From: Nemertoderma westbladi
Taxonomy: Eukaryota > Animalia > Xenacoelomorpha
Assembly: GCA_032718475.1 (NCBI GenBank)
Contig: JAUCBJ010000013.1
Location: 20,428 to 84,427 of the forward strand
Direction of reading: 5' to 3'
Length of the DNA stretch: 64,000 nucleotides
Below the pieces are notes generated by a model. It saw nothing but the letters and a program-made list of their open reading frames with translations, had not been told where the DNA came from and searched no databases. Positions 1,958 through 59,700 of the stretch are shown here, one piece after another; position 1 is the stretch's first letter; each line of letters begins with the position of its first letter. The translations under genes and the position numbers were made by a program.

Positions 1958-3185
1958 TTGATTGATTCTGTTACCGCGCATTATTGGTGCCTCCGTAAAC
2001 AATACAAATCTCTGATAACTAATAAACGTATTTCTTATGAAAATTTAGAACTTTTAAATCGGTCCATCTTCGAACACGGATTCAAGCCGTCAGTAGCTCC
2101 TATAGATGCTGCTGTGCTTGAGGATCACTTTACGTCGCTCCTTGGAACCCCCAACGACCCTGCCGATGCTCCGCCCCCACCTGAAACAACGGAGTCGGAG
2201 CTGAACTCCGATGAATGGTTCAACCGCCAGTTCACAATGAAATATACGAGACTATCTCCAACCTTCCGAACAATAAAGCTTGTGGTCAGGATGGTATTTT
2301 CTACGACCATATAAAACAAGCAGCCCCGTTTATTTTATCAATAATACCTCTTCTTTATAACGTTAGCCTTGAATCTAGTAATCTTCCATCTATCTGGAAG
2401 CAAAGTGTAATTAATATACTCTACAAGGGTAAAGGTACAATTACAAATCCGGACAATTACCGCGGGATTGCTCTCCTTTGCGTTCTACTTAAAATCCTGA
2501 CGTCAACGATAAACAAAAGAATTCGCCGTGCTTTGTCTGGTTTCATTCCGATAGAACAGTTTGGTTTTACTGCGGGAAGATCCACTAAACAAGCAATATC
2601 TCAGCTTCTTCGCGATATTTCGGCGGCATTTTCTTCAACGACGAGAGAAAATAGAACAACATACGCATTATTTGTAGATTTTAGAAAGGCCTTCGACCTC
2701 CTTAGCAGAAAGGTTTTACTTAATAAGTTGTATAATTCTGGTGTTCGTGGAAAAACATACAATCTCATCAAGGACTTATTGTGCAATTATTTTCGTGTCA
2801 ACGACGGCCTGCGATTCTCGAATTTTATTAGACAGCTCGCAGGCGTTTTATAGGGAGACTTAGACTGTCTCAGTCCCACCTGCTTCATTATATTTATCGC
2901 AGATCTCGCAGTTGCTCTTAGGAATGCGGCTTATCTGCTAAAGTTCATATTCTATGCCGATGAATTAGTTATTTATTCTAGAAACAAAAAGGATATCCAA
3001 TCAGCTCTCGATGTCATATTCGCTTGGTGCAACTCAAATGGAATGGAAGTGAATCTACTGAAAACTAAGATCGTGAAGTTCCGTAAAGGTGGACGCTTTA
3101 GTAAGGACGACACTTTTATATATGGAAATAATAATGTTAAATTGGTGAACAACTATGAATATCTTGGAATAACACTTCAGCTTTC
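1958..3185 (+). pseudogene. Degenerate non-LTR retrotransposon (LINE) reverse-transcriptase fragment
   Basis: Motifs NKACGQDGI, YKGKG..NPDNYRGIALL, QFGF, FVDFRKAFD, GVL*G, YADEL, KTKIVKF, YEYLGI. Frameshifts and an in-frame stop at about 2851. Confidence 0.9.
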
Positions 3186-3462
3186 CACACACCGCAGCTC
3201 GCCGATTATAGAAGTAAACAACATAAAATGACACTATATTTCGGGTCATGGTGTATATTATGCATAATTGGCTGTATATATATATATATATTACATAAGC
3301 TCGTAATTAAACATTGCAAGTATATAGATTAAATGTTAAAGTTGTCAATTAAATTTGTTTTAATGACATTTTTCTTTTTGTTCAATTTTTTATTTTTTAA
3401 GGAACTATGTACACACCCAGTGGGGGTAAATTGAATTTATTTATCTTATATACAATGTATTA

Positions 3463-4393
3463 CACCATGACCCGTAATATAGTGTCATTTTCTAATGACA
3501 CGGACACCCCCCAAAATTTTTCTACACATCTTTATCATATTGCTTGAAATTTGAAACACAACTAGTTCAACTCACCGTGGTTGTTACCATGAAGCCGGAA
3601 TTTACGATTTTGCCTTTACATTTTTTTATAAGTGTTTTAAAAAAGTGTCTTTGCGAAATTGCACATCTCCTATCATCGCCATTCTTCACATTAACCTCGC
3701 TTTATAGATATTATTAAAAAGCTTGCGTTCCAAGGATTCCAATTATGTAACAATATATGAGAAATAGGCGTTAAATCTACAAATAGGCGGAGAAATAGGC
3801 GAGAAATAGGCTGAGATATAGGCGTTCAAAGATTGCAGGAACTTTTGCTCGCTGCAGGCCATTTTTTCTATTTAATTAATATACAAAATTCTAGAACGTG
3901 TTATTTATTTTATGAGTTGGTAGGCAACAGCGGAATGGCTATACAATATTGCGTAGCTAATCATAAATAAACAAATTGTTCCAGAACATTGCGTATTTAT
4001 TAAATAGAATAAATGGCAGGCATAGAACAATTCTTGCAATCTTTTAACGCCTATATCTCAGTTGTTTCTCAACGAAATAAATATATTGTTACATATTTGG
4101 AATCCTTGCAAGGCAAGCTTTTTAATAATATCTATAAAGCGAGGTTAATGTGTAGAATGGCGATGATAGGAGATGTGCGATTTCGCAAAAGACACTTTTT
4201 TAAAACGCTTTTAAAAAGAATGTAAAGGCAAAATCGAAACTTCCGGCTTCATGGTAACAACGACCGTTAGTGGAACTAGTTGTGTATCAAATTTCAAGCA
4301 ATATGATAAAGGTGTGTATAAAAAATTGGTGGGGGGGGGGGGGGGGGGGTGTCCGTGTCATCAGAAAATGACACTATATTTCGGGTCATGGTG
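3463..4393. mobile_element. Fold-back MITE (Tc1/mariner-like, TA target duplication)
   Basis: ta|caccatgacccgtaatatagtgtcattttct ... agaaaatgacactatatttcgggtcatggtg|ta. Arms are imperfectly complementary over most of the element. Related ends at about 3226-3255, 13562-13805 and 22548-22704. Confidence 0.8.
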
Positions 4394-4488
4394 TATAACA
4401 ATAATTTGTATAATATTATGTTTTCTGCAAACTTTTTTAGCGTACATAACGGTACCAACTACCAATTAACTGTGTTTATTTAGATTAT

Positions 4489-5693
4489 CTACTTTCTTCT
4501 TTTGGGGGATTTCCGCCTCTTTGGTGATTTTGGCCGTTTCATTTTTGGTCGTTTCGGTGATTTACTTTTTTTCGGTGACTTTGATCTTTTCGGTGACTTT
4601 TTCTTTTTTGGCGATTTTGATCTTTTTGGTGATTTTCTTTTTTTCGGTGATTTTGATCTTTTCGGTGACTTTGATCTTTTCGGTGACTTTTTCTTTTTTG
4701 GTGATTTTGATCTTTTAGGCGATTTTTTATTTTTTGGTGATTTTGATCTTTTAGGCGATTTTTTATTTTTTGTTGATTTTGATCTTTTTTTTTTATTTTC
4801 TTTCCCATGTTTTTTTGAACCACTTCTAGACTTGCTTTTCTTTTTATCTTTTTCTTTCTTATTTTTTTCCTTTAGGCCACGTTTCTTTGCATTTTTTTTA
4901 CGTGATCTTTCTTCTCTTTTTAACATTTTATCTCTGAGTCTCTGTTTACGATTTTCCTCTTGCTTTTTTCTCTCCTCTCTACTCTTTGCTCTCCTTTCCT
5001 TGTTCCTTTCTTTCCTTCTTTTCTTTTCTTCACTTTTTTCATCACCACCTCCCACACCTCCCTGATCAGGTTGTTGACCTCCCCCGCTGTAATCGCTTTC
5101 CTGATTAAAACCCCCATCAGGGTCATCATTCATCCTACCACCGTTATCATAACCTTCATCGTTACCTCCACCATAGCCACCGTTACTGCCACCGTTACCT
5201 CCACCATAGCCACCGTTACTGCCACCGTTACCTCCACCATAGCCACCGTTACTGCCACCGTTACCTCCACCATAGCCATCGTTACCACCACCATACCCTT
5301 CTCTATCCTGACTATCACCACCACGCATGGGGGGTTGATACTCAGCATCTTCTGAGTAATCAGTATAATCTGCACCACCCTCCTGATCAACCTCAGCCCC
5401 ATTGCTGTACCCACCCCCTCGCCTAGCTCTAGGCCATCGATACGAAGAACAAACACAAATCCTATCCGGGATGTAGAAGAGATACCCGTAGGCTCCCATC
5501 TCCCAATACGGGTTGTCTGACGCCGCTAAATTACTCGTTTGTAACCATCGCAACAACGTTGCTAGTAGTAACTCAATGAAAAATATGATCAATGCCATGA
5601 CTCCCCCGATGTCTATTACGCCTTCCCAGTCTGCCATCAACGTTTGTTTACAGCCCCTTTGGTTTATAGTTTGAACAGATCCACCACGTAGAC
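4489..5693 (-). CDS. Peripherin-2/ROM1-like tetraspanin, exon 2 (end of EC2 loop, TM4, long Gly-rich then Lys/Arg/SPKK-rich tail)
   Basis: Acceptor catag|GT at 5694/5693 (phase 1). Reads GLRGGSVQTINQRGCKQTLM...IIFFIELLLATLLRWLQTS...NP...GYL, like peripherin RGC...LRYLQTS. Open to the stop at 4489. Confidence 0.8.
4492..4790 (-). repeat. Coding 18-bp tandem repeat encoding 14 SPK(K/R/N) motifs
   Basis: KSPKRSKSPKKKKSPKR... in the ORF 4489-5640 translation. Confidence 0.9.
5160..5295 (-). repeat. Coding 33-bp tandem repeat (GGNGGSNGGYG)
   Basis: ccgttacctccaccatagccaccgttactgcca repeated three times plus partial units. Confidence 0.9.
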
Positions 5694-5984
5694 CTATGAT
5701 GACGCATTAGTGAGGCCTACGGGATAGCCAGAATTATTTTCACACTTATTTTTACGAGTTGCTAATATGATTTGCTCAATAGAACATGTTACAGTTCCCT
5801 TTTTACTAGTAATATGCTGCTGCATATTTCCCTCACCCTATATCTGTATTGCTTACATTTTGACAGTTTTACTGAAATAGTATCTCTTAAGTATTCTTTG
5901 CAGCAACTTGTTTCGGCTACGGTTCCGTATGCCACTACACTTTTTATACCTTAATCATTGTTACTATGGCAACAATGGTAATTA

Positions 5985-6518
5985 TAGAACACCATATAAA
6001 AGTTATTTAACTATTCTAGAACATAAATAAAATAATAAATATAATGTTGTAGAACATTATAGCTAGTTGTTTTTATTTTAAATTAGTTAGTAATTTTGAA
6101 AAAAATTCAGATGTTAAATTTTAACAATTTGTCGCCAATGTTTTAACATTTTTTTATAGTTTCAAAAAATACTAGCTAGTAAAAAAAACACTACCTACTA
6201 TAAAAAAACATGTCTACTAGTGTTCTAGAACACTTAACAATAATAAAAAGCGAAAATATTACCATATTTCTCAAATTTAATAAATGGTCACACAAGCGCT
6301 ATACCTATGTTAAAAATACACAAAGCTATCTTAACAATTATTAGCTACCTGAAATTGTAAAATTTATACCCTAACACTAAATTTAATAAATTTTTTTTAA
6401 TTTATTTTAAGTACTAGCTATTTTTAAATATAAAAATTACTAGCTATATGTTCTAGAACATTATATTTTATTGTATTTATGTTCTAGAATAGTTAAATAT
6501 CATTTATATGGTGTTCTA
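5985..6518. mobile_element. AT-rich fold-back/MITE-like palindrome in the tetraspanin intron
   Basis: tagaacaccatataaaagttatttaactattctagaacataaata... mirrored by ...tatttatgttctagaatagttaaatatcatttatatggtgttcta. Confidence 0.6.
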
Positions 6519-6748
6519 GAACTCTACATGTTTTCTACAAGTTGCATCGTGTGAGAGGAACCTAACTCCGCGATACATTTAATAGGAGGAATAAAAATTG
6601 ACTCACTCAAATTAAAGATAGGGAGTCTAAATTATTTAATAAGTATCACCTCAGATATTTTTCATAACCTTGAATTTTTTTATTTTTTCTAACACTTTAA
6701 TAAGATGTGTTGTAAAGTAATAGGTCACACAGGCCACACTAATGTCAC

Positions 6749-7493
6749 TTTTGGTTTCGCACGGTTGCAAAGTGACTTTGCGACAACAGCTAAACGGCAC
6801 ATCGTCCACTAAATATCTCCCGTCAAAACTTCTTCTTTCCTCCACTTCCCCCGCAGTTGTATCAATATACCTCGAATTAACCCACTGAACACCGAACCAA
6901 TCCTGGTAAGATTCACTCCCACAGCATTGCAACTCCAACTGAAGCACGTCAACTTGCTCTTTTACGTAAGTGCTGTTTGGGTACTGCTCCATAACTTTGG
7001 ATATCCCTCTAGAAAGCGAATTCATTATGTGAGATTCAAGTTGAAAACAAACTATTGAAGCTGCTATTATTATAACTCCAAGAATAATATGGGCTAAAGT
7101 AAATAAATAAAGCCAAACATTAGATGATAAACGCGTTTCTTCATCTTGACTACTGAAACAAGTTTTCGCTGTGAATATGCCCAATACGATTTGAGCTACT
7201 CCCGTTATTATAAACAATAAACTAAAAGTGACGTCACTGTAATCTTTTAGTAAATGTACATAACCTCCAATCCAAACTCGTATCGCTATCGCGAATACAA
7301 TCATAAGTTTCCCACTAAATATAGTCAGACAACTGAGGAACCAGGATATTCTCGCTAACACCTGTCTGCTTCCGCCACTCAGTTTCAGGGTCATCAATCG
7401 GTGTCCATCTCTAGGCAAACCGTTACGGTTCCTCGGAAATAATGCACTTTTTAGTCTCGAAAGTTTCGGGAGACTCAAATGGCTTCCTGTCAT
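6749..7493 (-). CDS. Peripherin-2/ROM1-like tetraspanin, exon 1 (TM1-3 and most of EC2)
   Basis: Three hydrophobic segments, then LQLELQCCGSESYQDWFGVQWVNSRY and DDVPFSCC, hallmark RDS/peripherin motifs. Donor placed at AAA A|gtgaca (phase 1, compatible with exon 2); the exact donor is uncertain. Confidence 0.85.
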
Positions 7494-7612: not shown

Positions 7613-8284
7613 GGGGTCGGTTTCTCAAAGCTCACTTATCTTAAATTGCCCACTTAAACCAAACTTTTTCTTACAAAGTCAAAACTTAAACGACAATTTA
7701 AAATTACACATTTAATAATAATAATGATTATTATTCTTTATTAACTGATCACGCAGTTGCAACAAGAAGGGGACAAAATTTCATATTTAAGGGAAGACTT
7801 AAGTAACACTGGGAGGTACTCTCTTAGGCCGCGATCACACTACCGAGTCAAAGTCAAAATGTAAAACATAATCACAAGAAATTTATTTTTTTCTAGAATC
7901 GCCTTATGTATTATATTAGGCCTATATAATGTATTATTATTTATTATTGCTAGCTAGCTATATTTTTATTTTGACTTTGACTCGGTAGTGTGAACGGGGC
8001 CTTATGTGTGGTCACTTAGGTATAATTTGCTCTGTACCGGTAATGTTTTGTTGAGAATAAAAAACATAACTGATAAGCCGATCTGATTTGGCCACTGATT
8101 TGGCCTAGGCCCATCTGACCAATTAAAGGATCTGGGTCACAGGTTTGGAATATTTCAGTTTTGGATATCTTTTAATGAGAAACAACACTTAACTTAAATT
8201 AAGTGGCCATTTAACAAGTGAGCATTTAAAATTATTAAGCCGCCACTTTAAGATATGTGGGCACTTGGTTTGAGAAACCGGGCC
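7613..8284. mobile_element. MITE with short TIRs (gg[t/c]cggtttctcaaa), possibly PIF/Harbinger-like
   Basis: gggtcggtttctcaaa at about 7614 and tttgagaaaccgggcc at about 8269. Contains a nested MITE. Confidence 0.55.
7827..8001. mobile_element. Small Tourist/Harbinger-like MITE, TTA target duplication
   Basis: tta|ggccgcgatcacactaccgagtcaaagtcaaaat ... attttgactttgactcggtagtgtgaacggggcc|tta. Confidence 0.8.
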
Positions 8285-39222: not shown

Positions 39223-40056
39223 GTGCGATCGAGCAGAGAAAGACAGGTTGACGTCGCGGGAGGGCAGACGGAGCGTCGAGCCCGATCAGAGGAGGAAAGA
39301 AGAACAGTGGGGTTTAACCGGGAGGTCGACGAGAGATCTCGTGAGCGGGAATATTCCACTGATAGGAGAAGAGAGGAAGACAGTAGTAGAAGTATCGCCG
39401 CAAACGATAGAAGAGCGAGGACGGACAGCGAGCCGTCGGTAGTCGAGATGAGAACGGAGAGTCAGTGGGGTCGGACTCCGGGAGATTGCCGTCGCCCCGG
39501 AGGGATGCGATCCGGTGAGACGCATTACACGCCGAGAGAGGGGTACGCGATGTACCGGTACGAAGATGAAAACAGTGGAGAGGGGGGTCGAAGAGAAACT
39601 TTCCGACGGAATATACCTACCGATCGAGAATACGGTAGCCGCGGGGAGGATTATTCGAGAAGAATAAACTTCGATCCCGAGCAACACATGCAGACTGTAG
39701 GGCATACTGTAGGTCTTACTGCACATACCGTAGGCCATACTGAGAGAGGCAATGTAGGCGATAGGATAGCGCGGACAACGGGATTAAACCCGGAAGTCGC
39801 GGAATACATACCGGCGAGTAGGCCAGAAGCTGATAGGCCTATACCGGTACCAGCACAGCAGTATGACTACAGCATGCAGGGACATAACATATACCCAGGG
39901 GAGGGGGGAATTATTGCGGATAGGTGTATGGGCCCCAACATATTAACATCAACCCCAGTACCAGACATACCGGTGGGGGGGGGGGACAGGGTGACATTCC
40001 CCCATCACAATATCAACAATATACCCCGACAGGAACAAGAACAACGAGACCCCTAG
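39223..40056 (+). CDS. BEL/Pao element: Gag linker segment between poly-G runs
   Basis: The frame is open from the G-run at about 39110 to past the G-run at about 39980; includes LNPEVAEYIP. Confidence 0.55.
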   Translation: MRSSRERQVDVAGGQTERRARSEEERRTVGFNREVDERSREREYSTDRRREEDSSRSIAANDRRARTDSEPSVVEMRTESQWGRTPGDCRRPGGMRSGETHYTPREGYAMYRYEDENSGEGGRRETFRRNIPTDREYGSRGEDYSRRINFDPEQHMQTVGHTVGLTAHTVGHTERGNVGDRIARTTGLNPEVAEYIPASRPEADRPIPVPAQQYDYSMQGHNIYPGEGGIIADRCMGPNILTSTPVPDIPVGGGDRVTFPHHNINNIPRQEQEQRDP

Positions 40057-42710
40057 ATGAAAACAGGTCGTGTGATACAGACATATGGAGGGGGCCGCTA
40101 CCCCCGATGACATATCCGAGTCAGAGAAGATCAAGAAATAGGACGGACGAACCGCACCAGACAGGGGAAACTATACAGCACCCGTCGAATCCATTAGAAG
40201 CGCAGGCAATGGGGATGGCCACGTTGATCGATGCGTTGAAAACGAGGATCGAATTACCACCCGTGGAACCGTTCAAATTCGATGGGAGCAGGCCGGAAGA
40301 ATACTTACAGTTTCGGCGAATGTATAGTAACGAAATACTAACAAAAAACTTGACGCAGGCGGAGTGCCTAAAGTATCTACAAGTATACACGGGAGGCCCA
40401 GCATACGACATCGTGAGGCAATATCAGGGAATAGAGGGCGGCTTCACGACAGCATGGCGGGCACTGGATAGGGAATACGGGCACCCGGCCAAGATCATCA
40501 GGCAAACGCTGAGAGGCATAACATCGGGTGGCCTACAGGATAATCCCGTTAGCATTAAGACGTTTGCTAACAAAGTCGAGAAGGCGCTGATCGTGCTGAA
40601 GACGCTAGACGCGCCGTACGAGCTCAACGCGTCCAATAACATCACCACGATAGCGCAGGCACTACCGAGCTGGCTGCGCAACAAATGGAGGAAGATCGCT
40701 TTCTCCACCCGAGACAAGAAGGGTGCGGAACCAGGTTTAGAAGAAATGTCAAACTTCTTAAACTACGAGGCTGAACTAATAACTGACCCAGTCTATAGTG
40801 AAGATAGCCTGGGAAAGGGACCAAAGACAGATCACTACAGGCCCAAACCAGAGCACAATACATCAAACGCATTGCCGAGGCTCAGACAATCATTGCCATA
40901 CGCAGCGACGCAGGGGACTGCAAGTCCACAGGCAAACGAAGATAAGACAACATCAAGGGACGGACAGGGGAACAATAACAACATGAATAAACATAACCCC
41001 AGTACGTCCAGTAGGCCAAACCCAGTCAATAAGAATAGTAGGGACTTTGGTACGAATATAACTGCGATACGCAATGCATTGTATAAAGAGGGCTACGACC
41101 CAAAGAGCAAATGCCAGTTACACGCAAATGCGCTTCATAAAACTATGAATTGCAGGTACTGGCAGGCGCTACCGAGGCAAGACCAGATAGATTACGCGTC
41201 GAGCAATAAAATCTGCTCGCGATGTGTGAAGAGTGGACACAAGGCCAGGGAATGCCAAGAGAAGCCGGTCAAGTTTGGCCAAAGGAGAGGCCAGACGATG
41301 GCAACGAGCACAGTAGGGGCGAAGAAGAGAGGAACAGTGCTACTTGGAGTAGTACCAGTACGAGTGATCGGGGAAGGCAATCGATCAGTAACAACACTAA
41401 TGCTGGTTGATAGTGGAGCTGCCTTCACATTAGTTGAGGAATGGGTGGCCGAAGAAATAGGGTTGAGAACGATGCCAAGCAGGATGGCGGTAACAACCAT
41501 CTCTAGCAAAGATGAGATCCTAGAGATGAGGACAGGACGGTGCGCAATTGCAGCAGTAGCACCAGGATGCGATTATGGGGCAACCATCGACCCCATCCAA
41601 GTAATAGAGTCAATCAACATCAATGCCAGGCGGCCAACCAACATCGAGGTCGAGCAATACAAATTCCTGGACGACATTGACTTCTCGATCCCAGACGTGG
41701 ACGTTAGGAAGGTATCCATCATAGTAGGAATGGACTGCCCGACGGCCCACGAAAGAATGCAAACGGTCTTCGGCGAAGACAAGCAGAGCGACCCGGTGGC
41801 CATACTAACACCATTCGGGTGGACACTGACAGGCCCAATTAAGAGTAATATACCATTCAATGTGTCCGAGAGTTCAGGATGCATGGTGCCAGGAACCGAC
41901 GAGATAGAGGAGAGGTCAGAGATGGGCAATAGTGGTAGACAGCTAGAAGTAGAAGCAACACCAAGAGAGTGGGCGGAGGAGAATGGTATGGATGCAGAAG
42001 ATCTGGAGACGATGGGTTGGAATAAGGGTCCCAGCAAGTATCGGTATGGAGATGGAGAGGAGCGGACGGTGGAGTGTCGGGAGGACAAACCGGAGAAGTG
42101 TCCGGTGGAGTGTCCAGAGGAGCGTCCGGAAGAGACGCCGGTCCGGTTGAGAGGCATACCGACAAGGGGGAAGCCGAGTAAGAATACAAGATGGAAAGGG
42201 AGAAGATGTGAGACGATCAGACCAGGGGCAGAGAAGCCCATGAATAAACATATGGTGGACAAAGGAGGCGGGAGAGTAGGAGGCGTGCTGCGTACGCACG
42301 CGGAACTGACAGAGTGCGAGGGGGCATTACATGCGCAGACATCGTGTATACCGAAGGACGAACGGGGGTCGTTGAAGCCTTTAATGCCAGCACACATATT
42401 AAGGGGGAGGCCAGCAGAGATGGCATCTAAGATTAAGGAGAAGAACAGGGGCGGCATTATACCGCCGGGTGACACGTTGAAGGGTGGCACTTTGCCGCCA
42501 AGGGACGACCACGAGATCAGAAACATAAATAAGAGACAGCATTTGCCAAAACAGGAGAAAAGACCACCTATCGAATTGACAAGGAGAGCGGAGCGAAGAA
42601 TTAGAGAACCTATAGGGCGGCAGTGGGAGAGTTGCCTGCTGGAGGAATCACCCCTTGGGTCGCTGAGTTGTCCAACAGGTTGGACTAGGATGGAAGAGTT
42701 AGATCCGTAA
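39924..42710 (+). CDS. BEL/Pao Gag (DUF1759-like), zinc knuckles and aspartic protease; RT, RNase H and integrase core absent
   Basis: PFKFDGSRPEEYLQF...LKYLQVYTGGPA...AWRALDREYG; CQLHANALHKTMNC and CSRCVKSGHKAREC; LVDSGAAFTLV; IIVGMD...PVAILTPFGWTLTGP. Only a PLMPAHILRG relic of the post-integrase region remains. Confidence 0.9.
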   Translation: MYGPQHININPSTRHTGGGGGQGDIPPSQYQQYTPTGTRTTRPLDENRSCDTDIWRGPLPPMTYPSQRRSRNRTDEPHQTGETIQHPSNPLEAQAMGMATLIDALKTRIELPPVEPFKFDGSRPEEYLQFRRMYSNEILTKNLTQAECLKYLQVYTGGPAYDIVRQYQGIEGGFTTAWRALDREYGHPAKIIRQTLRGITSGGLQDNPVSIKTFANKVEKALIVLKTLDAPYELNASNNITTIAQALPSWLRNKWRKIAFSTRDKKGAEPGLEEMSNFLNYEAELITDPVYSEDSLGKGPKTDHYRPKPEHNTSNALPRLRQSLPYAATQGTASPQANEDKTTSRDGQGNNNNMNKHNPSTSSRPNPVNKNSRDFGTNITAIRNALYKEGYDPKSKCQLHANALHKTMNCRYWQALPRQDQIDYASSNKICSRCVKSGHKARECQEKPVKFGQRRGQTMATSTVGAKKRGTVLLGVVPVRVIGEGNRSVTTLMLVDSGAAFTLVEEWVAEEIGLRTMPSRMAVTTISSKDEILEMRTGRCAIAAVAPGCDYGATIDPIQVIESININARRPTNIEVEQYKFLDDIDFSIPDVDVRKVSIIVGMDCPTAHERMQTVFGEDKQSDPVAILTPFGWTLTGPIKSNIPFNVSESSGCMVPGTDEIEERSEMGNSGRQLEVEATPREWAEENGMDAEDLETMGWNKGPSKYRYGDGEERTVECREDKPEKCPVECPEERPEETPVRLRGIPTRGKPSKNTRWKGRRCETIRPGAEKPMNKHMVDKGGGRVGGVLRTHAELTECEGALHAQTSCIPKDERGSLKPLMPAHILRGRPAEMASKIKEKNRGGIIPPGDTLKGGTLPPRDDHEIRNINKRQHLPKQEKRPPIELTRRAERRIREPIGRQWESCLLEESPLGSLSCPTGWTRMEELDP

Positions 42711-43530: not shown

Positions 43531-44042
43531 TTAGAGAGAGAGAGAGAGTGAGAGATAAAAGGGATATATAGGATATAGATATTAGTTAGCAGTAAGTAGA
43601 GTTAGTAGCGAGAGGGGGGCATATGAGTGCAGCTGGATAAATCGTGTGGCCACACGACGCATACTGCTGTACTGCATAGGCCCACTGAGTAGGCCAGAAT
43701 ATGGATCAGAGAGAGAATAGAATAAATCCATAGGCAGTAGTAAGTAGTAGGACAGTAGAATCAAAGCAAAATAAACAAATAAATAGAATAGGGCTAAAAT
43801 CGGAAAATAGTGGTAACACAAGGAAAGTCGTTCTAGAACATAATAAAAGTAACAGACGGAAATTGTAAATTAGGCTGATTTACTAGCTCCGAAATTAATT
43901 AGATTAAATTAAGCTTGAAAGGCGCAGTTAAGTAGAAAAGTAGGCCATTATCGAACTGTACGAAACATCTTAAATACTTCACTCATCTGTATTGCGCCTT
44001 GGTAAGGCACCACCCTGCAGGTGAGCGAGTGTAGTGTTCGGA

Positions 44043-46577
44043 ATGGCGAGTAAGCTGATCAGGAAGAGAAAGGCGGAGTCAGGAGGAAAAGAAATATTGG
44101 TGGATTTCACCGAAAGACACCCGGAGGAGAAGACGAGAGGATACTACGAGAGGTTGGAAAGGGGTCATGCGGCACGAGCGCTGCAGGATCACTTCCGGGA
44201 GGCGCACGAACAGCGGTTGGTCGGGACCTACGGGACGCCGTCGCTGGACAACGCGATCTTCCAACACTTCCACTACGTGGTGAAAGGAGACGAGGCGAAG
44301 TTCGGGATTCCGAAGTATCCGAGGGAATCGCCGAGGAAGGACTGGAAAAGATTCATAGAGTCTGTCAACAGAGGAGGATATATGATCCTAGATGACGAGG
44401 GAACCGTGGAAGACAAAGCGGGTTCGAGACGAGGAACGGCAGGGTCGGCCAGGACCATACTCTTGCATTTGGCAGCGCCAAATGGGGACATCTTCTTATT
44501 CGACCTAGGGACGTATGGGAAGAAGGACGGGCCGAAATTAGACCGATTGCCGAAAGCGGTACAAGTCTTAGTAAGAGAAAAGTCGACGACGAAAGTGGGA
44601 TCGGCGATTCGCGAGGACGCGGAGAGGATCATCGGTCCGGACGCCACCAACCTCCTGGATATGCAGAAAGTCTTTATGGCTATGACGGCACCGGATGGAT
44701 TGGGGGTGGTCGAGAACACAGGCCAATGCGGGGCGGTGGCGATGGGCCAATTATTGGGGCTCGTATGCCACAAACCAATGGATTGGGGGAAGTTTAGGGA
44801 AGAATACGGAGCAGAACTAGCGAACTCGCTGAAGTGGGGAGCGAGACCGGGAAAGCAGGAGGTATATCAGTTTCGCAGAGGAGCGATAAAGGTATATCAG
44901 AAGCGATATATCCTGCAGGAGGACTGGATGATGATAAGTTTGCTTAACTTATTCATGACCGTAGTTATCGAAAGGGAACCAGGGGCATTTCTGTTATCGG
45001 GATCACCCCTAAGCTACAGGAGAGCCTTTAAAGTGGCCTTTGACGGTCTGGTAGACCACCCGGGGCTGAAGGGCGAGTCGGTGTACTACAACAGCCGACA
45101 TCTGGTAGACGGGGAGACAGATACACCGTATCAGAGATGGGAGCAGCTAGAGGCGGACAGACGAGAAGCAAAGCGACTGGAAGAAGTCGCTAGACGGGAG
45201 AGGATAGAAGCAGAGGAGAGGGAAGAGGAGGCCAGGGCACAGAGTTACGGCTTCGAGGAACAGGCGGGCCTAGACGAACTTCATTGGACTTCGTCAGGGA
45301 GTTCGGGGGAGTCTCTAGGGCGAGAATTGGGATGGACGGTGGGATCGCCGAAACAGTCGACGTCGGGGTTGCACACGATGCCCATACCAGCGGGCGCCGA
45401 GGGCGACCAACCGCCAAGGAAGTTAAGGGAGCTAGAGGGATGGAGAGCTACGGGCGAGAGCCAAGGCGGGAAGGGACATAGTGGATCCATCGGGATACCG
45501 GGATTGGAGACACTACCAGAAGAGGAGGACGACGACGACGAGTTCGGAGAGATGCCGCCCATCGAGAGGATAGGCCACTCGGACACGGACTGGGTTGGCG
45601 GAAGGGTGGTGACGGCCAGTGGGGCGAGGGCCTTCTGGAACAGATCCGGCAAGCGGACCTGGGTGCACGAGGAGCCGGCGATGGATTTCGCGGGGAGCAC
45701 CATCAGGTTGGGCGAGCAACCGGGAACGGCACCACGGATAGTATTCGGGGAGACGATGCCCGAGAGGGGCGGAGAGATAGACGTAAACAGGGAGAGCAAC
45801 GTAGAGAAGTTCGCCTACCAGCGACTCCATAGACCGCGGAGATCGCTTGGGACGAAAGACGAGGTGGGACGCGAGACATTGGTACTCGGCTGCGACTACT
45901 GTGGGAGACAGACCCATCGGGAAAGCAGCTGCCTATACCGGTTCCAACGGGGAACCTTTTGTCTCTACTGCAGAGAACCAAGTCACAGGATGGGGGCGTG
46001 TCCACGGTTGCATAACCGATGTCCAAAGTGCCACTTTCGGGGACACTACGGACGCGAGTGCGACTGGATGAGCGACGAGGAGAAGTTCACGAGGTTCGAG
46101 GAGTGGGCCGACGTCGGGGCCATGACGCGCCAGCGCATGAAGGCCCAAGAGTTCAAGTGGGGTTTCTTCCTTATAAACCAGGAGACCCACATGGAAATCA
46201 TAAAGCGGAGGTTACCGTTTACCTATCAAGAGGTAGCTACGGCGGCATCGTTCGCCGGAGTTATGAACACGCAACGGCACCTGGACAGGTGGACACCAGA
46301 GAACCGGAGGGAGTTTAGGGATTTCTTGGCGGAACACGTACCAAAGGCAATGAAAATGATCCTATGGGACGCCACACGAGGGAGACAACCAGGCCATTCT
46401 GAGGGGCCACCGGCGAAGCGGTATCGGGCTTTAATAACACCAGCGCCCAAGGAGCCGACGACCGGGATCAGCAAGGAAGTGGCAGCGAAGGTCCGGAAGC
46501 AGAAAGCGGATGATGCCAGAGGAGCGGTGATAACCAAGAAACGGGCCAGGGAAGAGGACGTGAGGAGGAACAGATAA
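44043..46577 (+). CDS. Retrotransposon cargo ORF: DEDD(y)-like 3'-5' exonuclease domain (WRN/Mut-7/EXD-like) plus three CCHC zinc knuckles
   Basis: Uninterrupted 844 aa from ATG 44043. ILDDEG (ExoI), LLHLAAPNGDIFLFDL, LPKAVQVLV...KVGSAIREDAE (ExoII), LLDMQ, LLG..HKP, Q-x-x-YILQED (ExoIII-like). Knuckles CDYCGRQTHRESSC, CLYCREPSHRMGAC and CPKCHFRGHYGREC. Confidence 0.8.
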   Translation: MASKLIRKRKAESGGKEILVDFTERHPEEKTRGYYERLERGHAARALQDHFREAHEQRLVGTYGTPSLDNAIFQHFHYVVKGDEAKFGIPKYPRESPRKDWKRFIESVNRGGYMILDDEGTVEDKAGSRRGTAGSARTILLHLAAPNGDIFLFDLGTYGKKDGPKLDRLPKAVQVLVREKSTTKVGSAIREDAERIIGPDATNLLDMQKVFMAMTAPDGLGVVENTGQCGAVAMGQLLGLVCHKPMDWGKFREEYGAELANSLKWGARPGKQEVYQFRRGAIKVYQKRYILQEDWMMISLLNLFMTVVIEREPGAFLLSGSPLSYRRAFKVAFDGLVDHPGLKGESVYYNSRHLVDGETDTPYQRWEQLEADRREAKRLEEVARRERIEAEEREEEARAQSYGFEEQAGLDELHWTSSGSSGESLGRELGWTVGSPKQSTSGLHTMPIPAGAEGDQPPRKLRELEGWRATGESQGGKGHSGSIGIPGLETLPEEEDDDDEFGEMPPIERIGHSDTDWVGGRVVTASGARAFWNRSGKRTWVHEEPAMDFAGSTIRLGEQPGTAPRIVFGETMPERGGEIDVNRESNVEKFAYQRLHRPRRSLGTKDEVGRETLVLGCDYCGRQTHRESSCLYRFQRGTFCLYCREPSHRMGACPRLHNRCPKCHFRGHYGRECDWMSDEEKFTRFEEWADVGAMTRQRMKAQEFKWGFFLINQETHMEIIKRRLPFTYQEVATAASFAGVMNTQRHLDRWTPENRREFRDFLAEHVPKAMKMILWDATRGRQPGHSEGPPAKRYRALITPAPKEPTTGISKEVAAKVRKQKADDARGAVITKKRAREEDVRRNR

Positions 46578-48760: not shown

Positions 48761-49075
48761 AAGCAGCTATGTGATGGGGTAAGTCCTTCAATCGCCTCAA
48801 TAAAGTTTATTTTACCAAAAGTGAATGACATCCTTTTCTACATTATTGACTCCCATACACCGCTACCTGAGTTTTTATTCGATTTAAATATTCCCGTAGC
48901 CCATTTTATGATACTGATACCCCTAACAACCCGATCCACCTTTACTCCAAGTGTCCCTCGGGTCGGTCTGTCGGTCTTGGTATCTTTAATAACTGGTCAT
49001 TATTTCCAAATTCCCGATGCCTCTCTGCTGGTAACCAACTCATTTGTCTCGATATTGTTTTCATATTTTTTACAG

Positions 49076-49249
49076 CTGAAAATCCAACAACGCTGTGGAG
49101 TGACTGGTTGCCATGGAGCTCGTGTAGTTCTACGTGTGGGATGGCCAACAGGTTTCGGTCCCGCCATTGTGTCAAATTCAGTGACCAATCAGGTGATTGC
49201 ATCGGTGATCACCAGGAAACCAAACAATGTGAACTAGATGGTTGTCAAG
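49076..49249 (+). CDS. Sema5: Semaphorin-5-like gene, exon: TSP1 repeat 5
   Basis: tacag|CT...CAA G|gtaata. WSDWLPWSSCSSTCGMANRFRSRHC...DCIGDHQETKQCELDGC. Confidence 0.92.
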
Positions 49250-49397
49250 GTAATAATAATAAATAAAGTTATTCAGTCATATTACTTAACTCTTAACGGT
49301 CTCCCCGAATTAACCGATTCGATAGACGGTTAATTCGGTCAAATTAATAATAATAAATAAATAATATAATAATATATTTCGCCTTTTTGTATTTCAG

Positions 49398-50300: not shown

Positions 50301-52293
50301 ATCTACCGATTCAATATACCAGAATATAATAACAGCCCACAAGGAATCAGCTAAGAGGCATATCCCCCAGAAACCTAAACGAAAACAGTATGTGCCATGG
50401 CAAAACTCTGAGGTTACTTGTAAGAGAGAAGATCTTAAGATAGCCTACAAAGTTAAAACCGAACAACCAACAACTGAAAACATTAACAAGGTTGAGAAAG
50501 CTAAGGACGATCTTAAATTGGCCTACAACATCAGCCAGGAAAAGTACATACAGGATAAAACTGAAGCAATTACAACTGCTCACATACAGCAACAATCAAG
50601 ACTTACCTGGCAAACTGTAAATGAGGTATCTGGTCGGGAAAAGTTGTGCAAAGGGGCGCCTCAAAGCCGATAGTCCTGAAGAACGTGTTGGGAAGTGGAA
50701 AAATCATTTCAGCAACTTGCTTGGGCAGACACCAAACATCGAGGTCAGCCCTACAAGGAAAATATATGACAAGACACTACCTATAGAAACAGGGGACTTC
50801 ACACCTGCCGAACTCCAAAGAAGCATTAAAAGCATGTCCAATAATAAAGCGAGTGGATTAGATGAAATCCCAGCGGAGGTATGGAAAACCGGAGTGCTAA
50901 ACAGACCATTATTGAATGTTTGCAACCGGATGTTAAAAGGGGGAAAGCCACCACCAAATTGGACTAAAGGTCAACTAAAACCTCTCCCCAAGAAAGGAGA
51001 CCTCGGCATACCAACAAACTATCGTGGGATTTGTCTGCTTGTGGTAGCTGCCAAATATACAATAAAATGATTCTATATAGGAGTAGGCCTCACATAGAGA
51101 AACTACTGCGTAAGAGCCAAAACGGATTTCGACCAAGTAGATCAACAATAGCTCAGATACTTGCACTACGGGGACTGATTGAAGGAATTAAGTCAAAGAA
51201 TCTCCCCGCAGTCATGACTTTTGTGGACTTCAAGAAGGCATTCGACTCCATCCATAGAGGTAAAATGCTTGAAATCCTAAGAGCTTATGGAATACCAGAA
51301 GTAATTGTTGCTGGCATTGGATTGTTATATTGTGACACAGACACAGAAGCCTCACCAGATGGTGAAACTGAGTTTTTCTCAATCCTGGCTGGCGTGCTGC
51401 AAGGTGACACATTAGCACCATTACTATTTGTAATTGTGCTGGATTACGCAATGAGGACGGCCACAAAGGGTGAAGATCTGGGAATCACACTTCAAGAACG
51501 CAGAAGTAGTAGATATCCGGCAACTACAGTCACAGGCACCGACTTTGCGGATGACATCGCCCTGCTCTCTAATACGCTAGCAGATGCACAGCTTCTACTA
51601 AATAAACTGGAGAGGGCTGCTAAGGAGGTTGGATTGCATATAAATGCTACAAAGACCGAATTCATGACCTTTAATGTTGATGGGAACTTGACAACCATTG
51701 ATAATAATCAACTAAGGAAGGTCGATGACTTCCAGTACCTTGGATCATGGATAGAGAGTAGCAAAAAGGACATAGAAGTTAGGAAAGCAAAGGCTTGGGT
51801 AGCTCTATCAAAAATGGATACCATCTGGAAATCAGATCTCTCCAGGCACCTGGAGACTAAGTTCTTTCGAGCCACAGTGGAAAGTGTATTTTTATACGGG
51901 GGTGAGACCTGGACACTAACTAAATCACTTGAACAACGAATTGATGGTTGCTACACAAGACTACTAAGGGCAGCCCTAAACATCAGCTGGAGACAACACA
52001 TGACAAACGCCGAGCTTTATGGAACAATACCACCTGTATCAACCACCCTCCGTGAACGCAGATTAAGATTCAGTGGGCACTGCTGGCGAAGTAAAGACGA
52101 GGTCATACCAGATCTACATCTCTGGCAACCAACTCATGGAAAGCGTAGTCGTGGACGACCGGCCATAACATATATAGATCAACTTGAAAGGGATACTGAA
52201 CTTGGGAGAAACGAAATTGCGACAACTATGGAGAATCGGGAAGCCTGGAAGGATCTCATTTCCACTGTCCGAGTTCGCTCGACGTAGTAGTAG
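50301..52293 (+). pseudogene. 5'-truncated RTE-clade LINE with a frameshifted RT
   Basis: ORF pieces 50275-50673, 50621-51070 and 51031-52287: KASGLDEIPAEVWK, NYRGI, QNGFR, FVDFKKAFDS, GVLQGDTLAP, DFADD, YLGS. (gta)n tail; possible TSD GTACA. Confidence 0.92.
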
Positions 52294-57344: not shown

Positions 57345-59700
57345 ATAGTCCAGCTCAATTTTCTAAAATTCGTACAATGTGTGGGGCGAGCCACGAAGTG
57401 AGTGAGCCTTAGCGTAGTGGTACCATTAATCAACCTGTCGTTCTGTCGTTCTGTCGTTCTGTCGTTCTGTCGTGTTCAATTTTAAACGTTAATAACTCGG
57501 CCAATCTTTGATGAAATCTATCCAAACTTGGTACACATGTTGTTTGGCAAAAGTTTAGAAATTTTCCAAGTAGAATTTCCGTGTGGCCTTCGAGAAGCTA
57601 AGATAATAGCAGTTAATTAGTTAATTAAGTTGATTGCGGTGAAAACGCCATTTTCAACCTGCCTTTTAAAGGAAATTAATTGTTTTACAGTATAAGATTT
57701 AAATAATTATACTTAAAAATTATACAGATATAATCCCCATACGCCATTCTATTATAGTTTTTAATTAGTTTAAGTGATTTGCTTTAATAAATGTGTCTTT
57801 AATTGATCTAAACGTAATTAAACCGCACAATTATTGAGTACAAATTTAATCCTTCCCATTATTGGTCAATAGGGTGTTACAAAAATCACTTTTTTGCCCC
57901 AATTGCTTGGAAACTTTGACATGCTTTGCCATTTTAATGTAGAAGTACAATGCAAAAAACCGTTTTGAAAAATATTTAGTGGAAGAGGTGTCACACGAGT
58001 CACAAAATCTGAGAAATTTAACAAAATATAGCAGTTTTAATTTACCGATAAATCTAGCGAGAGATGATTGCAATGATCTGAAACTCATGTTATGTAATGC
58101 ATTTATCATGGGCTTTCCAATAACGTTTTTGGCATTGTGAAATTGACAAGATCAGATGTGTCACATTGAGTGTGAAAAATTGATTTTTTTTTTAAAATAT
58201 AAGAAATTTAACAAAATATAGCAGTTTTAATTTACCGATAAATCTAGCGATAGATGATTGCAATGATCTGAAACTCATGTTATGTAATGCATTTATCATG
58301 GGCTTTCCAATAACGTTTTTGGCAATGTGAAATTGACAAGATCAGATGTGTCACATTGAGTTTGAAAACTTAACTAATTCTATATGGGAATGTGCTGGTC
58401 CCCCCTGAGTTAGTTCAACTATTACTGACCTGGCCATCTTTACATTGCCGCGATACACAGTAACTAACCTGTCATAAGCCCCCTCAGAGGCATTGTCATC
58501 ACCTATAAACGTACTTACCAATTCCTTCAGTTGACCTCTCAACTGTTGGTATAAGTAGTTGAATTTCTCAGTCGGTGAGAAATCCTGTTGAGCGACATTA
58601 GTCTTGATATAGTTGATGAAGGTTCTCCAATGTTTAGATAAACCAGTGAAGTGCGGAGGATGTAATGGTGGAAGATTGTGTCTCGGACTGAACTTAGAAA
58701 ACTCCACTGTGATTGAGTTGACCATAGTATTGTCTTCCCTTCCTACCCGTTGATGGACATAAGTTGGAATCGGTTCAACTGGTGAGTAGGATAACGTACC
58801 TGTGGACGAGTACGCGAATTCGTCCCGTGATAGGTTACCTTCTCACTGACTGGTGATCTATAGTCAGTCTCAAACTCTGAGTCTGCCTGAATATTTATAA
58901 CTGGGCATTCGTGGTTTAAACTTGGGATGGTCTTCAGGACGTTGGTACTGTTGTTCCTGTACTCTAAGCTTTTCATTCTCATGTTGAGCTCGTTCTACAT
59001 TGTCATTGACCTCATGGATATTACACCTAACATGGTCGAACTTTGACGTACTGAATTCTTTGCTGCACTTCTTGCACAACACCACATACAGTTTGAACTT
59101 GTCCCTGCACCTGATGGACTTGTGACTGAATATGTTGGACTTTACCTTTTTCTATGGATGACTTCATCCCACACTTCCTTATTACCTTCCCTAATTGCTA
59201 AATTTAATTGATACATATGGATGTTGGGCTTACCTGGAGTAGGACTTGGATTAAACCGCTCACTGTCTCGAGCTCCATCCCACTCGGCTTGATCGCCTTA
59301 TAATCGCCAATAATTATACTTAAAAATTATACAGATGCAATCCACATACTCCATTCTATTATAGTTTTTAATTAGTTCAAGTGATTTGCTTTAATAATTG
59401 TGTCTTTAATTGATCTAAAGTAATTAAAACGGCATAAAAAATTGATTCTCATTAAATACTGCTCATTTATTGGCCAACATGCTGGTACATAGATGGAAGG
59501 ATGTGTGTGTAAGGCGGCCAGTTGCTGGGAATGATTATTGGTCAAGTATCTGCTGGTGTGGAGCTAGCTGCTGGGAGTTGTGGCTGTAGACTAACCTGAG
59601 AGGAATTGTAATAGAGGCAACCAGTATTGCTATTCCAGCCCAATCACTGAATTGTGTTTATTATAGGCTGGACGGGCCGCATAACCGTTCGACTATTACT
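57345..59700. mobile_element. Possible Helentron-associated (DINE-1-like) repeat with internal microsatellite, internal duplications and an inserted fragment
   Basis: gtccagc/gctggac short inverted ends; (ctgtcgtt)x4-5 at 57436-57473; duplications 58010-58170/58200-58360 and 57707-57830/59310-59430. Confidence 0.4.
58351..58725 (-). pseudogene. BEL/Pao Gag (DUF1759-like) fragment
   Basis: LPPLHPPHFTG...WRTF...EKFNYLYQQLRG...AYDRLVTVY. Confidence 0.75.

Follow-up and report, generated by a model that had tools for sequence, protein, structure and literature searches.

The locus described here raises the question whether a membrane-shaping tetraspanin can end in a tail reminiscent of sperm histones and, if so, what such a protein might do. 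It lies on the minus strand of a 64,000-nucleotide (nt) stretch of Nemertoderma westbladi DNA (assembly GCA_032718475.1, contig JAUCBJ010000013.1, positions 20,428 to 84,427), hereafter called the window, whose first letter is position 1. A preliminary description of positions 4489 to 7493 had joined two reading frames into a peripherin/ROM1-like protein of about 649 amino acids (aa) with a long, SPKK-rich tail. Our analysis indicates that the locus carries a real and so far undescribed tail variant of the known RDS/peripherin family, and that this variant is likely related to sperm.

The two minus-strand frames, running from 7493 to about 6740 and from 5693 to 4489, correspond to the two halves of an RDS/peripherin tetraspanin, and human PRPH2 is the best match for both. 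The core of the gene, with its transmembrane segments (TM), is laid out as follows (pLDDT, predicted local distance difference test):

6731..7493, minus strand: exon 1, with the start codon, a 33-aa N-terminal extension, TM1-TM3 and most of the large extracellular loop (reading frame, Pfam, PDB, family profile)
7050..7337, minus strand: TM1 (7337-7281), TM2 (7232-7176) and TM3 (7106-7050), from hydropathy and predicted helices with pLDDT mostly >90
6783..6926, minus strand: stretch from the CCG motif to the PxSCC motif (PDB alignment, sequence)
4489..5693, minus strand: exon 2, with the last loop cysteine (GC), TM4, a conserved juxtamembrane stretch and the whole tail to the TAG stop (reading frame, PDB, family profile)
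5550..5619, minus strand: TM4 (PDB match, hydropathy, fold prediction)
4475..4480, minus strand: AATAAA hexamer 8 nt past the stop codon, a possible polyadenylation signal (five more such hexamers lie within 1.1 kb)

Read from the ATG at 7493, the exon 1 frame matches the Pfam family Tetraspanin (PF00335) with 66.2 bits (cut-off 32.1), and its best PDB sequence match is peripherin-2 (7zw1_A, E 3e-33), followed by ROM1 (2e-19) and Tspan15 (2e-6). Fold prediction with 41 relatives (mean pLDDT 83) returned 7zw1_A once more as the top structure match (E 2e-8, template-modelling score 0.66). The relatives begin at about residue 34 of the model, i.e. after the N-terminal extension; left unspliced, the frame would continue to a stop at 6651-6653. 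The second frame (5706-4489) is open for 405 aa from stop to stop, and peripherin-2 is the sole PDB match of its first 99 aa (E 0.01), with the alignment ending at chain residue 314. For exon 2, a word search that used its first 100 aa left no match among 34 candidates, and a protein atlas search gave no usable match; for exon 1, a single weak match to a longer relative emerged from 1327 candidates. The joined model holds four hydrophobic segments and all six loop cysteines (Cys 190, 191, 236, 237, 245 and 263 in the numbering of the 649-aa model), arranged in the RDS/peripherin pattern CCG--[DN][WY]--PxxCC--C--GC. A family profile built from 73 relatives spans it from TM1 to the juxtamembrane motif with about 244 bits, covering nearly the whole profile. 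Judged by these matches, the two frames are halves of one RDS/peripherin gene, and the full RDS/peripherin-type core previously ascribed to it is borne out by Pfam, PDB, profile and fold alike. The cysteine pattern itself is common to several other tetraspanin groups according to a family survey that counts RDS/peripherin among the tetraspanin lineages with invertebrate deuterostome orthologs (PMC2965184).

Behind TM4 the same frame runs on to the TAG without a stop or frameshift, just as first described, and passes through three compositionally distinct blocks:

5041..5412, minus strand: acidic Gly/Asn/Tyr low-complexity block, 124 aa, net charge -19, with 33-nt repeats, predicted disordered (repeat scan, fold prediction)
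4828..5040, minus strand: Lys/Arg/Glu helix, 71 residues (53 charged, 6 hydrophobic), net charge +23, predicted as one continuous helix (fold prediction)
4492..4764, minus strand: SPK repeat block, 91 aa, net charge +52, with 14 SPK(K/R/N) motifs at an 18-nt period, predicted disordered (repeat scan, fold prediction)

Counted from the end of TM4 the tail has 353 aa, and counted from the start of its unaligned part it has 316 aa, so that the earlier figure of ~330 aa was a fair one, and the earlier count of 14 motifs was exact (nine SPKR, four SPKK and one SPKN, 12 of the 14 being consecutive at an unbroken 18-nt period). When exon 2 was folded from its single sequence (mean pLDDT 56), TM4 was followed by a disordered stretch, by one helix of 71 residues (pLDDT >90) and by further disorder. 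This helix had been called a Lys/Arg coiled coil, a label that we withdraw: only 6 of its 71 residues are hydrophobic, no hydrophobic heptad was found, and even the best register has hydrophobic residues at just 4 of 20 a/d positions. The more fitting reading may be a charged single helix of the single alpha-helix (SAH) type, which would extend over about 10 nm if straight. Oppositely charged i,i+3/4 pairs number 37 as compared to a shuffle mean of 31, a modest excess that was reached by 391 of 5000 shuffles. Furthermore, the tail contains 20 matches to K[KR]x[KR], i.e. runs resembling a nuclear localization signal (NLS). No Pfam family, and hence neither a histone fold nor a winged-helix domain, was detected in the 405-aa frame at E up to 0.1, and a histone H1 gene was rejected for lack of such a domain. 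Taken together, the predicted protein is a genuine member of the RDS/peripherin subfamily whose tail features are not those of a peripherin-2 ortholog, and it is not a histone.

The codons of the repeat array bear on whether the tail is translated. All eight first and second positions of the K-S-P-K codons are invariant in 14 of 14 units, and all four third positions vary. Pairwise comparison of the units, from which none was dropped, yields 185 synonymous and 119 non-synonymous codon differences in the coding frame. Four other frames give 0-13 synonymous differences each, and the antiparallel frame that shares the wobble positions gives 131 synonymous versus 115 non-synonymous ones. The restriction of variation within KSPK to third positions rules out a chance open frame over a simple repeat, and by this codon evidence the SPK repeats are under selection.

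The gene stretch is covered by three DNA runs from two samples, one of which may be the source of the assembly. One read contig (X2 record 9) spans positions 5943 to 4743, that is, from the gap between the two frames through TM4 and past the first SPK motif; other contigs cover the stop, and none spans the whole repeat array alone. Three further runs (X4, X5 and X6) gave no real coverage of the exons, which does not count as evidence that the gene is absent there. The possibility that the tail is an assembly chimera, raised in the preliminary description, is therefore rejected. Since KSPK varies only synonymously and DNA contigs join TM4 to the first SPK motif, the tail is coding. Both letter differences found in coding sequence among the read contigs (2/2) are synonymous. 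An in-frame stretch of 66 nt within the Gly/Asn repeat is absent from one contig, either as an allele or through a collapse of the repeat. Within the gap, the stretch 6528-6674 exists in two variants, 8 letters and 1 gap apart, each at about half depth in all three covering runs; alleles or a collapsed gene duplicate are the candidate readings. The 300 non-coding bases upstream of the gene also vary little (one difference in one run), so that the contrast between coding and gap variation is suggestive only. Both gap ends are found on unique contigs that also carry the exons.

A search over 1.84 billion representatives retrieved 470 relatives, the best 150 of which were listed, most at 21-43% identity. 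Among these 150, 75 have a full loop (P0142 dropped) and 51 have a tail of at least 40 residues. We defined an acid-then-basic layout by a 30-residue window of net charge +12 or more following one of -4 or less. It is present in 11 of the 51 tailed relatives listed, two of them marginal (P0065 and P0145) and the other nine from Haliotis (abalone), Anneissia (crinoid), Diadema (urchin), Holothuria (sea cucumber), Argopecten (scallop), Pomacea (snail), Lingula (brachiopod) and the tardigrades Paramacrobiotus and Ramazzottius; Antedon, Lytechinus and Pinctada joined them through another search. The uniqueness of the tail implied earlier is thus not upheld, as the layout occurs across bilaterians. 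Proteins from Pinctada (P0181) and Lytechinus (P0175) carry Gly/acid and then basic SPKK/SPKR tails, and in that of the pearl oyster Pinctada, Gly/acid, mixed-charge and SPKK/SPRR blocks follow one another just as they do in the N. westbladi gene. SP[KR][KR] motifs number 13 here versus 7 in Lytechinus and 4 in Pinctada. In a careful tree of 42 rows, hand-picked from about 180 proteins, mollusc, brachiopod and tardigrade forms fall into a short-loop protostome clade (support 100/100) and the echinoderm forms lie elsewhere. On the evidence of these models, the acid-then-basic layout is a recurring one that may have arisen more than once; database models of several phyla already contain tails of this type without any remark on them, and the copy described here is the most regular seen. 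Some relatives are represented by both short and long database models. As side observations, P0165 and P0017 are models with a duplicated second loop half or a tandem tetraspanin core, probably artefacts of exon duplication or annotation. Many invertebrate peripherin tails, among them those of P0010, P0051, P0118, P0165 and P0175, contain repeated acidic 'EPIYANI/YENI' tyrosine motifs that resemble tyrosine-kinase sites and are absent from this gene.

The junction of the two frames and the gap between them involve the following features:

5694..6748, minus strand: gap of ~1 kb, the inferred intron, with weak GT donors, an AG acceptor at 5695-5694 and a branch-point-like CTAAT just upstream (sequence)
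6731..6744, unstranded: left arm of a 14-nt inverted repeat (1 mismatch) at the gap end (sequence)
5705..5718, unstranded: right arm of the 14-nt inverted repeat, overlapping the branch-point-like site (sequence)
5914..6530, unstranded: multi-copy repeat within the gap resembling a miniature inverted-repeat transposable element (MITE), with arms 5982-6107 and 6399-6521 that are 84% alike; ends approximate (repeat scan, read depth)

Only the AG before 5693 retains the last loop cysteine. On the donor side, GT dinucleotides at 6748, 6739 and 6730 (last exon base 6749, 6740 and 6731) are phase-compatible and would give proteins of 649, 652 and 655 aa, which the family profile fails to separate (243.5-244.2 bits). 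They differ in the loop between the last two cysteines, which would have 16, 19 and 22 residues, respectively. The same loop has 20-29 residues in 76 of 77 relatives, the exception (P0142) resembling another tetraspanin. Donor 6730 therefore fits better than donor 6748, whose 16-residue loop in the 649-aa model of the preliminary description falls below the range of the relatives. No hidden exon was seen by eye in the three minus-strand frames of the gap, and a U12-type intron was rejected as no such signals were seen by eye.

How the gap arose is suggested by two further traits. Of the 150 listed relatives, 53 are fragments without PxSCC, and 21 of these stop exactly 30 residues after CCG. 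This cut, as seen in the database models, marks a conserved exon end of the family. The N. westbladi gene reads through this boundary, which is a trait of gene structure and not a criterion for the protein. The length of the inverted repeat at the gap ends was reached by none of 3000 shuffles and by 4 real window pairs out of 3000, the repeat having been noticed before the test. Exact removal of 6744-5705 leaves a single frame with a 21-residue loop, within the family range; no target-site duplication was seen at the gap, and no other copy of the arm was found within the window. The missing conserved intron together with the inverted repeat suggests a retrocopy with a gained intron. That is, we infer that the gene descends from a retrocopy, or from a copy that lost its introns, which then received an insertion now spliced at weak sites; the gap with its inverted ends may thus record intron gain from an insertion. 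The intact frames beside an aged gap argue for function, and it is very probable that this is a functional gene with the tail described. Retrocopies tend toward testis expression.

A link to sperm comes from bivalves. In two unionid mussels, a contig labelled RDS2 is reported as one of six genes exclusive to the male gonad, and a second contig is male-biased, with a Haliotis 'Sperm protein' as its best match (PMC5800059). The male-exclusive contig has Lottia V3ZU77 (P0050) as its best match, a protein inside the basic-tailed protostome clade of our tree. The name 'Sperm protein' presumably goes back to an abalone sperm proteome. A second mussel expression study of RDS2 reportedly comes from the same group and overlapping species and is not counted here as independent. 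It lists RDS2 as upregulated in males over females and in hermaphrodites over females (PMC6754070). In Tridacna, two peripherin contigs are listed as upregulated in male as compared to resting gonad with log2 fold changes of 8.6 and 6.4, one of them rising from about 1 to 170-329 fragments per kilobase per million (FPKM) (PMC7720611). The main texts of an oyster and a planarian gonad paper name no peripherin (PMC3348941, PMC5544531), and the open-access literature, with subscription journals largely outside the search, yielded no paper on basic tails of invertebrate peripherins. By analogy, the male-gonad expression of the bivalve relatives lends indirect support to a sperm role for this gene, and we consider a role in the male germline reasonably probable.

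We propose, with a probability of roughly 0.42, that the protein is a peripherin/RDS tetraspanin whose core bends the rim of a sperm membrane and whose tail serves as a phospho-switched, positively charged tether to chromatin or another polyanion. The gene would have been born as an intron-less retrocopy, or have lost its old introns, and later have gained its present intron from an insertion with inverted ends; spliced and functional, it would be expressed in developing sperm. Core oligomers would gather at a highly curved edge of the spermatid membrane, at the acrosomal rim or the nuclear envelope, and there bend and stiffen the rim. Tetraspanin topology places the tail in the cytoplasm; in a protein that had arrived at the inner nuclear membrane, it would face the nucleoplasm. 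The flexible acidic linker and the rigid, ~10-nm charged helix could keep the SPK block (+52) off the membrane, and the unphosphorylated block would bind DNA or another polyanion until proline-directed phosphorylation of up to 14 serines frees it, as in sperm SPKK histones. Sperm expression, membrane curvature, DNA binding and the phospho-switch are the inferred steps of this scheme, and DNA as the actual partner of the tail is doubtful. The steps have precedents: SPKK is described as binding AT-rich minor grooves, with binding abolished by phosphorylation (PMC9903204), vertebrate peripherin is reported to form disc-rim oligomers (PMC10361718), and its core is said to generate curvature while the C-terminus has a separate job (PMC5412563). 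A far wider version, which we think unlikely, would make sperm membrane shaping the ancestral job of peripherin/RDS and photoreceptor discs a later use in vertebrates; in many invertebrates, the gain of tails resembling sperm histones would then have turned the protein into a membrane-embedded, phospho-switched chromatin anchor, i.e. a DNA-binding tetraspanin that couples the curvature of the acrosome or nuclear-envelope rim to the condensing sperm DNA.

Several observations weigh against the rim-and-tether proposal. The splice of this gene is predicted from sequence, and its candidate donors agree with the donor consensus (CAG|GTAAGT) at only 3-4 of 9 places. The model has no cysteine between residues 149 and 190, and the alignment has a gap at the vertebrate cross-linking position, C150, which we take to be the residue forming the inter-subunit disulfide of peripherin oligomers. 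SPKK motifs are scarce or absent in most basic tails of relatives, as would be expected of general charge more than of specific DNA binding. Tails are short in two sea stars, three hemichordates and fishes, and since the sea stars and hemichordates are close deuterostome relatives, a basic tail is dispensable for family function. In the tree, the N. westbladi protein sits on a branch of 1.85 in no supported group, with hemichordates and sea stars nearest by path, and the basic-tail label needs at least six changes, clustering no better than shuffles (217 of 500 as low). Such scatter, with the query outside the protostome clade, implies that the tails may be independent and that expression is not transferable by orthology. 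Finally, the rows listed in three echinoderm gonad supplements, two of them small, contain no peripherin (PMC11361572, PMC12652635, PMC12824366), and SPKK motifs are thought easy to evolve (PMC9903204).

Part of this evidence could be read in other ways that leave the core intact. The protein might shape a ciliary or flagellar membrane, of a sperm tail or a ciliary photoreceptor, with the basic tail gripping acidic tubulin tails or anionic lipids instead of DNA. Vertebrate peripherin is described as working in the cilium, with a C-terminus that retains ciliary membrane (PMC5412563, PMC10361718), the tails of many relatives are rich in Lys but devoid of SPKK (Lingula, Pomacea, tardigrades), and the bivalve male-gonad expression suits flagella equally well; yet the strict S-P-K register under selection is the motif described for DNA binding, and we hold this alternative to be rather unlikely. 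It is improbable that the tail, albeit coding, is an unspecific low-complexity signal for targeting, retention or solubility whose SPK repeats grew by slippage. The unalignable tails of the relatives, from <30 to several hundred residues, the scattered label, the tandem repeats at 18 and 33 nt and the 66-nt in-frame omission would all agree with such an origin, but KSPK changes are restricted to third codon positions and the acid-then-basic order recurs in the tailed relatives listed (11 of 51).

Other alternatives question the gene product itself. In one, the copy is broken, an unspliced insertion with 14-nt inverted ends having split an intron-less gene. The restored frame with its 21-residue loop, the improbability of the inverted repeat by chance, the weak donors and the missing conserved intron all speak for it. 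However, ~650 codons have stayed free of stops and frameshifts despite the nested repeat and the two variants of the gap, both coding differences are synonymous, an in-frame AG acceptor and a branch-point-like site are in place, no target-site duplication is evident, and the gap ends share unique contigs with the exons; we consider a broken copy decidedly improbable. The remaining alternative, a mainly short-tailed product, would require splicing away after TM4, or expression of the basic block from its own internal start as a protamine-like protein. Donor-like sites past TM4 (5534 and 5485) do fit the consensus at 6 of 9 places, better than the exon 1 donors, and short and long models exist for the same relatives. 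It is nevertheless very improbable, given that no stop or frameshift separates TM4 from the basic block, that core and basic tail belong to a single chain in the database models of relatives, and that exon 2 has no histone domain.

The window as a whole is animal DNA rich in repeats, with a G+C content of mostly 32-44%; fragments of reverse transcriptases and pieces of retrotransposons surround the gene. A small inverted-repeat element at 7826-8002, about 330 nt upstream of the start codon, has 38-nt arms (89% complementary) and GGCC ends flanked by TTA, resembling a PIF/Harbinger-type MITE. Just downstream of the gene, 3224-4397 holds nested multi-copy repeats with repeated 'gacactatatttcgggtcatggtgtat' ends and very high summed depth at 4200-4441. 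Decayed reverse transcriptase frames (RVT_1) of the long interspersed nuclear element (LINE) type lie at 2215-3231 and 50621-52284, and gag (DUF1759) and protease frames, presumably of BEL/Pao type, at 39924-42707 and 58354-58842. Beside the gag-protease frame, an 850-codon open frame (44025-46574) has no Pfam match, although visual inspection suggests a possible likeness of one part to WRN/RNase D-type exonucleases. An isolated thrombospondin type 1 exon with canonical splice signals, part of another gene, occupies 49075-49250 on the plus strand.

Knowledge of peripherin-2, a gene of human retinal disease, comes almost entirely from the photoreceptors of vertebrates, and its family spans bilaterians. 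Outside the retina, the data direct attention to the male germ line and to a polybasic tail that recurs. Should this tail bind chromatin, membranes would be tethered to DNA in a novel way, and the question of how the disc-rim machinery originated would become testable in sea urchin or bivalve sperm; if it is only a charged targeting signal, the finding is a modest annotation point.

Compared with known systems, the predicted protein shares with vertebrate peripherin-2/RDS and ROM1 (PDB 7zw1) the four-TM core and the six-cysteine loop, and they are its best sequence and structure matches. Similarity ends at the juxtamembrane stretch, beyond which the tail has 353 aa here and about 60 there. The amphipathic helix (310-328) and targeting signal (327-336) given for peripherin-2 (PMC5412563) have no match in this tail. 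The model also differs in the absent cross-linking cysteine, a different exon structure and a shorter last loop. The basic-tailed invertebrate peripherins resemble it in the core, the acidic/Gly-rich block, the polybasic region and, in some, SPKK/SPKR or KSP repeats, but core identity is only 26-34%, the tails are unalignable, its array is the most regular, and it falls outside the protostome clade. The gap resembles introner-like, transposon-derived introns in having inverted repeats at its ends, whereas no target-site duplication and, within the window, no multi-copy ends were seen. Lamin B receptor and yeast Heh1/Heh2 are multi-pass proteins of the inner nuclear membrane with a basic, Ser/Pro/Arg-rich, kinase-regulated domain and a long unfolded linker with NLS-like runs. 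The likeness in these traits is one of analogy, as their fold is unrelated, the tail here is C-terminal, and its location at the nuclear envelope is hypothetical. With the SPKK-bearing histones H2B and H1 from the sperm of sea urchins and hydrozoans, as described in PMC9903204, the protein shares tandem SP(K/R)(K/R) motifs in a disordered basic tail; it differs in having neither histone fold nor winged-helix domain, in the attachment of the tail to an integral membrane protein, and in that DNA binding is putative here. Of its 14 SPK motifs, 13 fit SP(K/R)(K/R), as compared to up to 7 such motifs in sperm H2B (PMC9903204).

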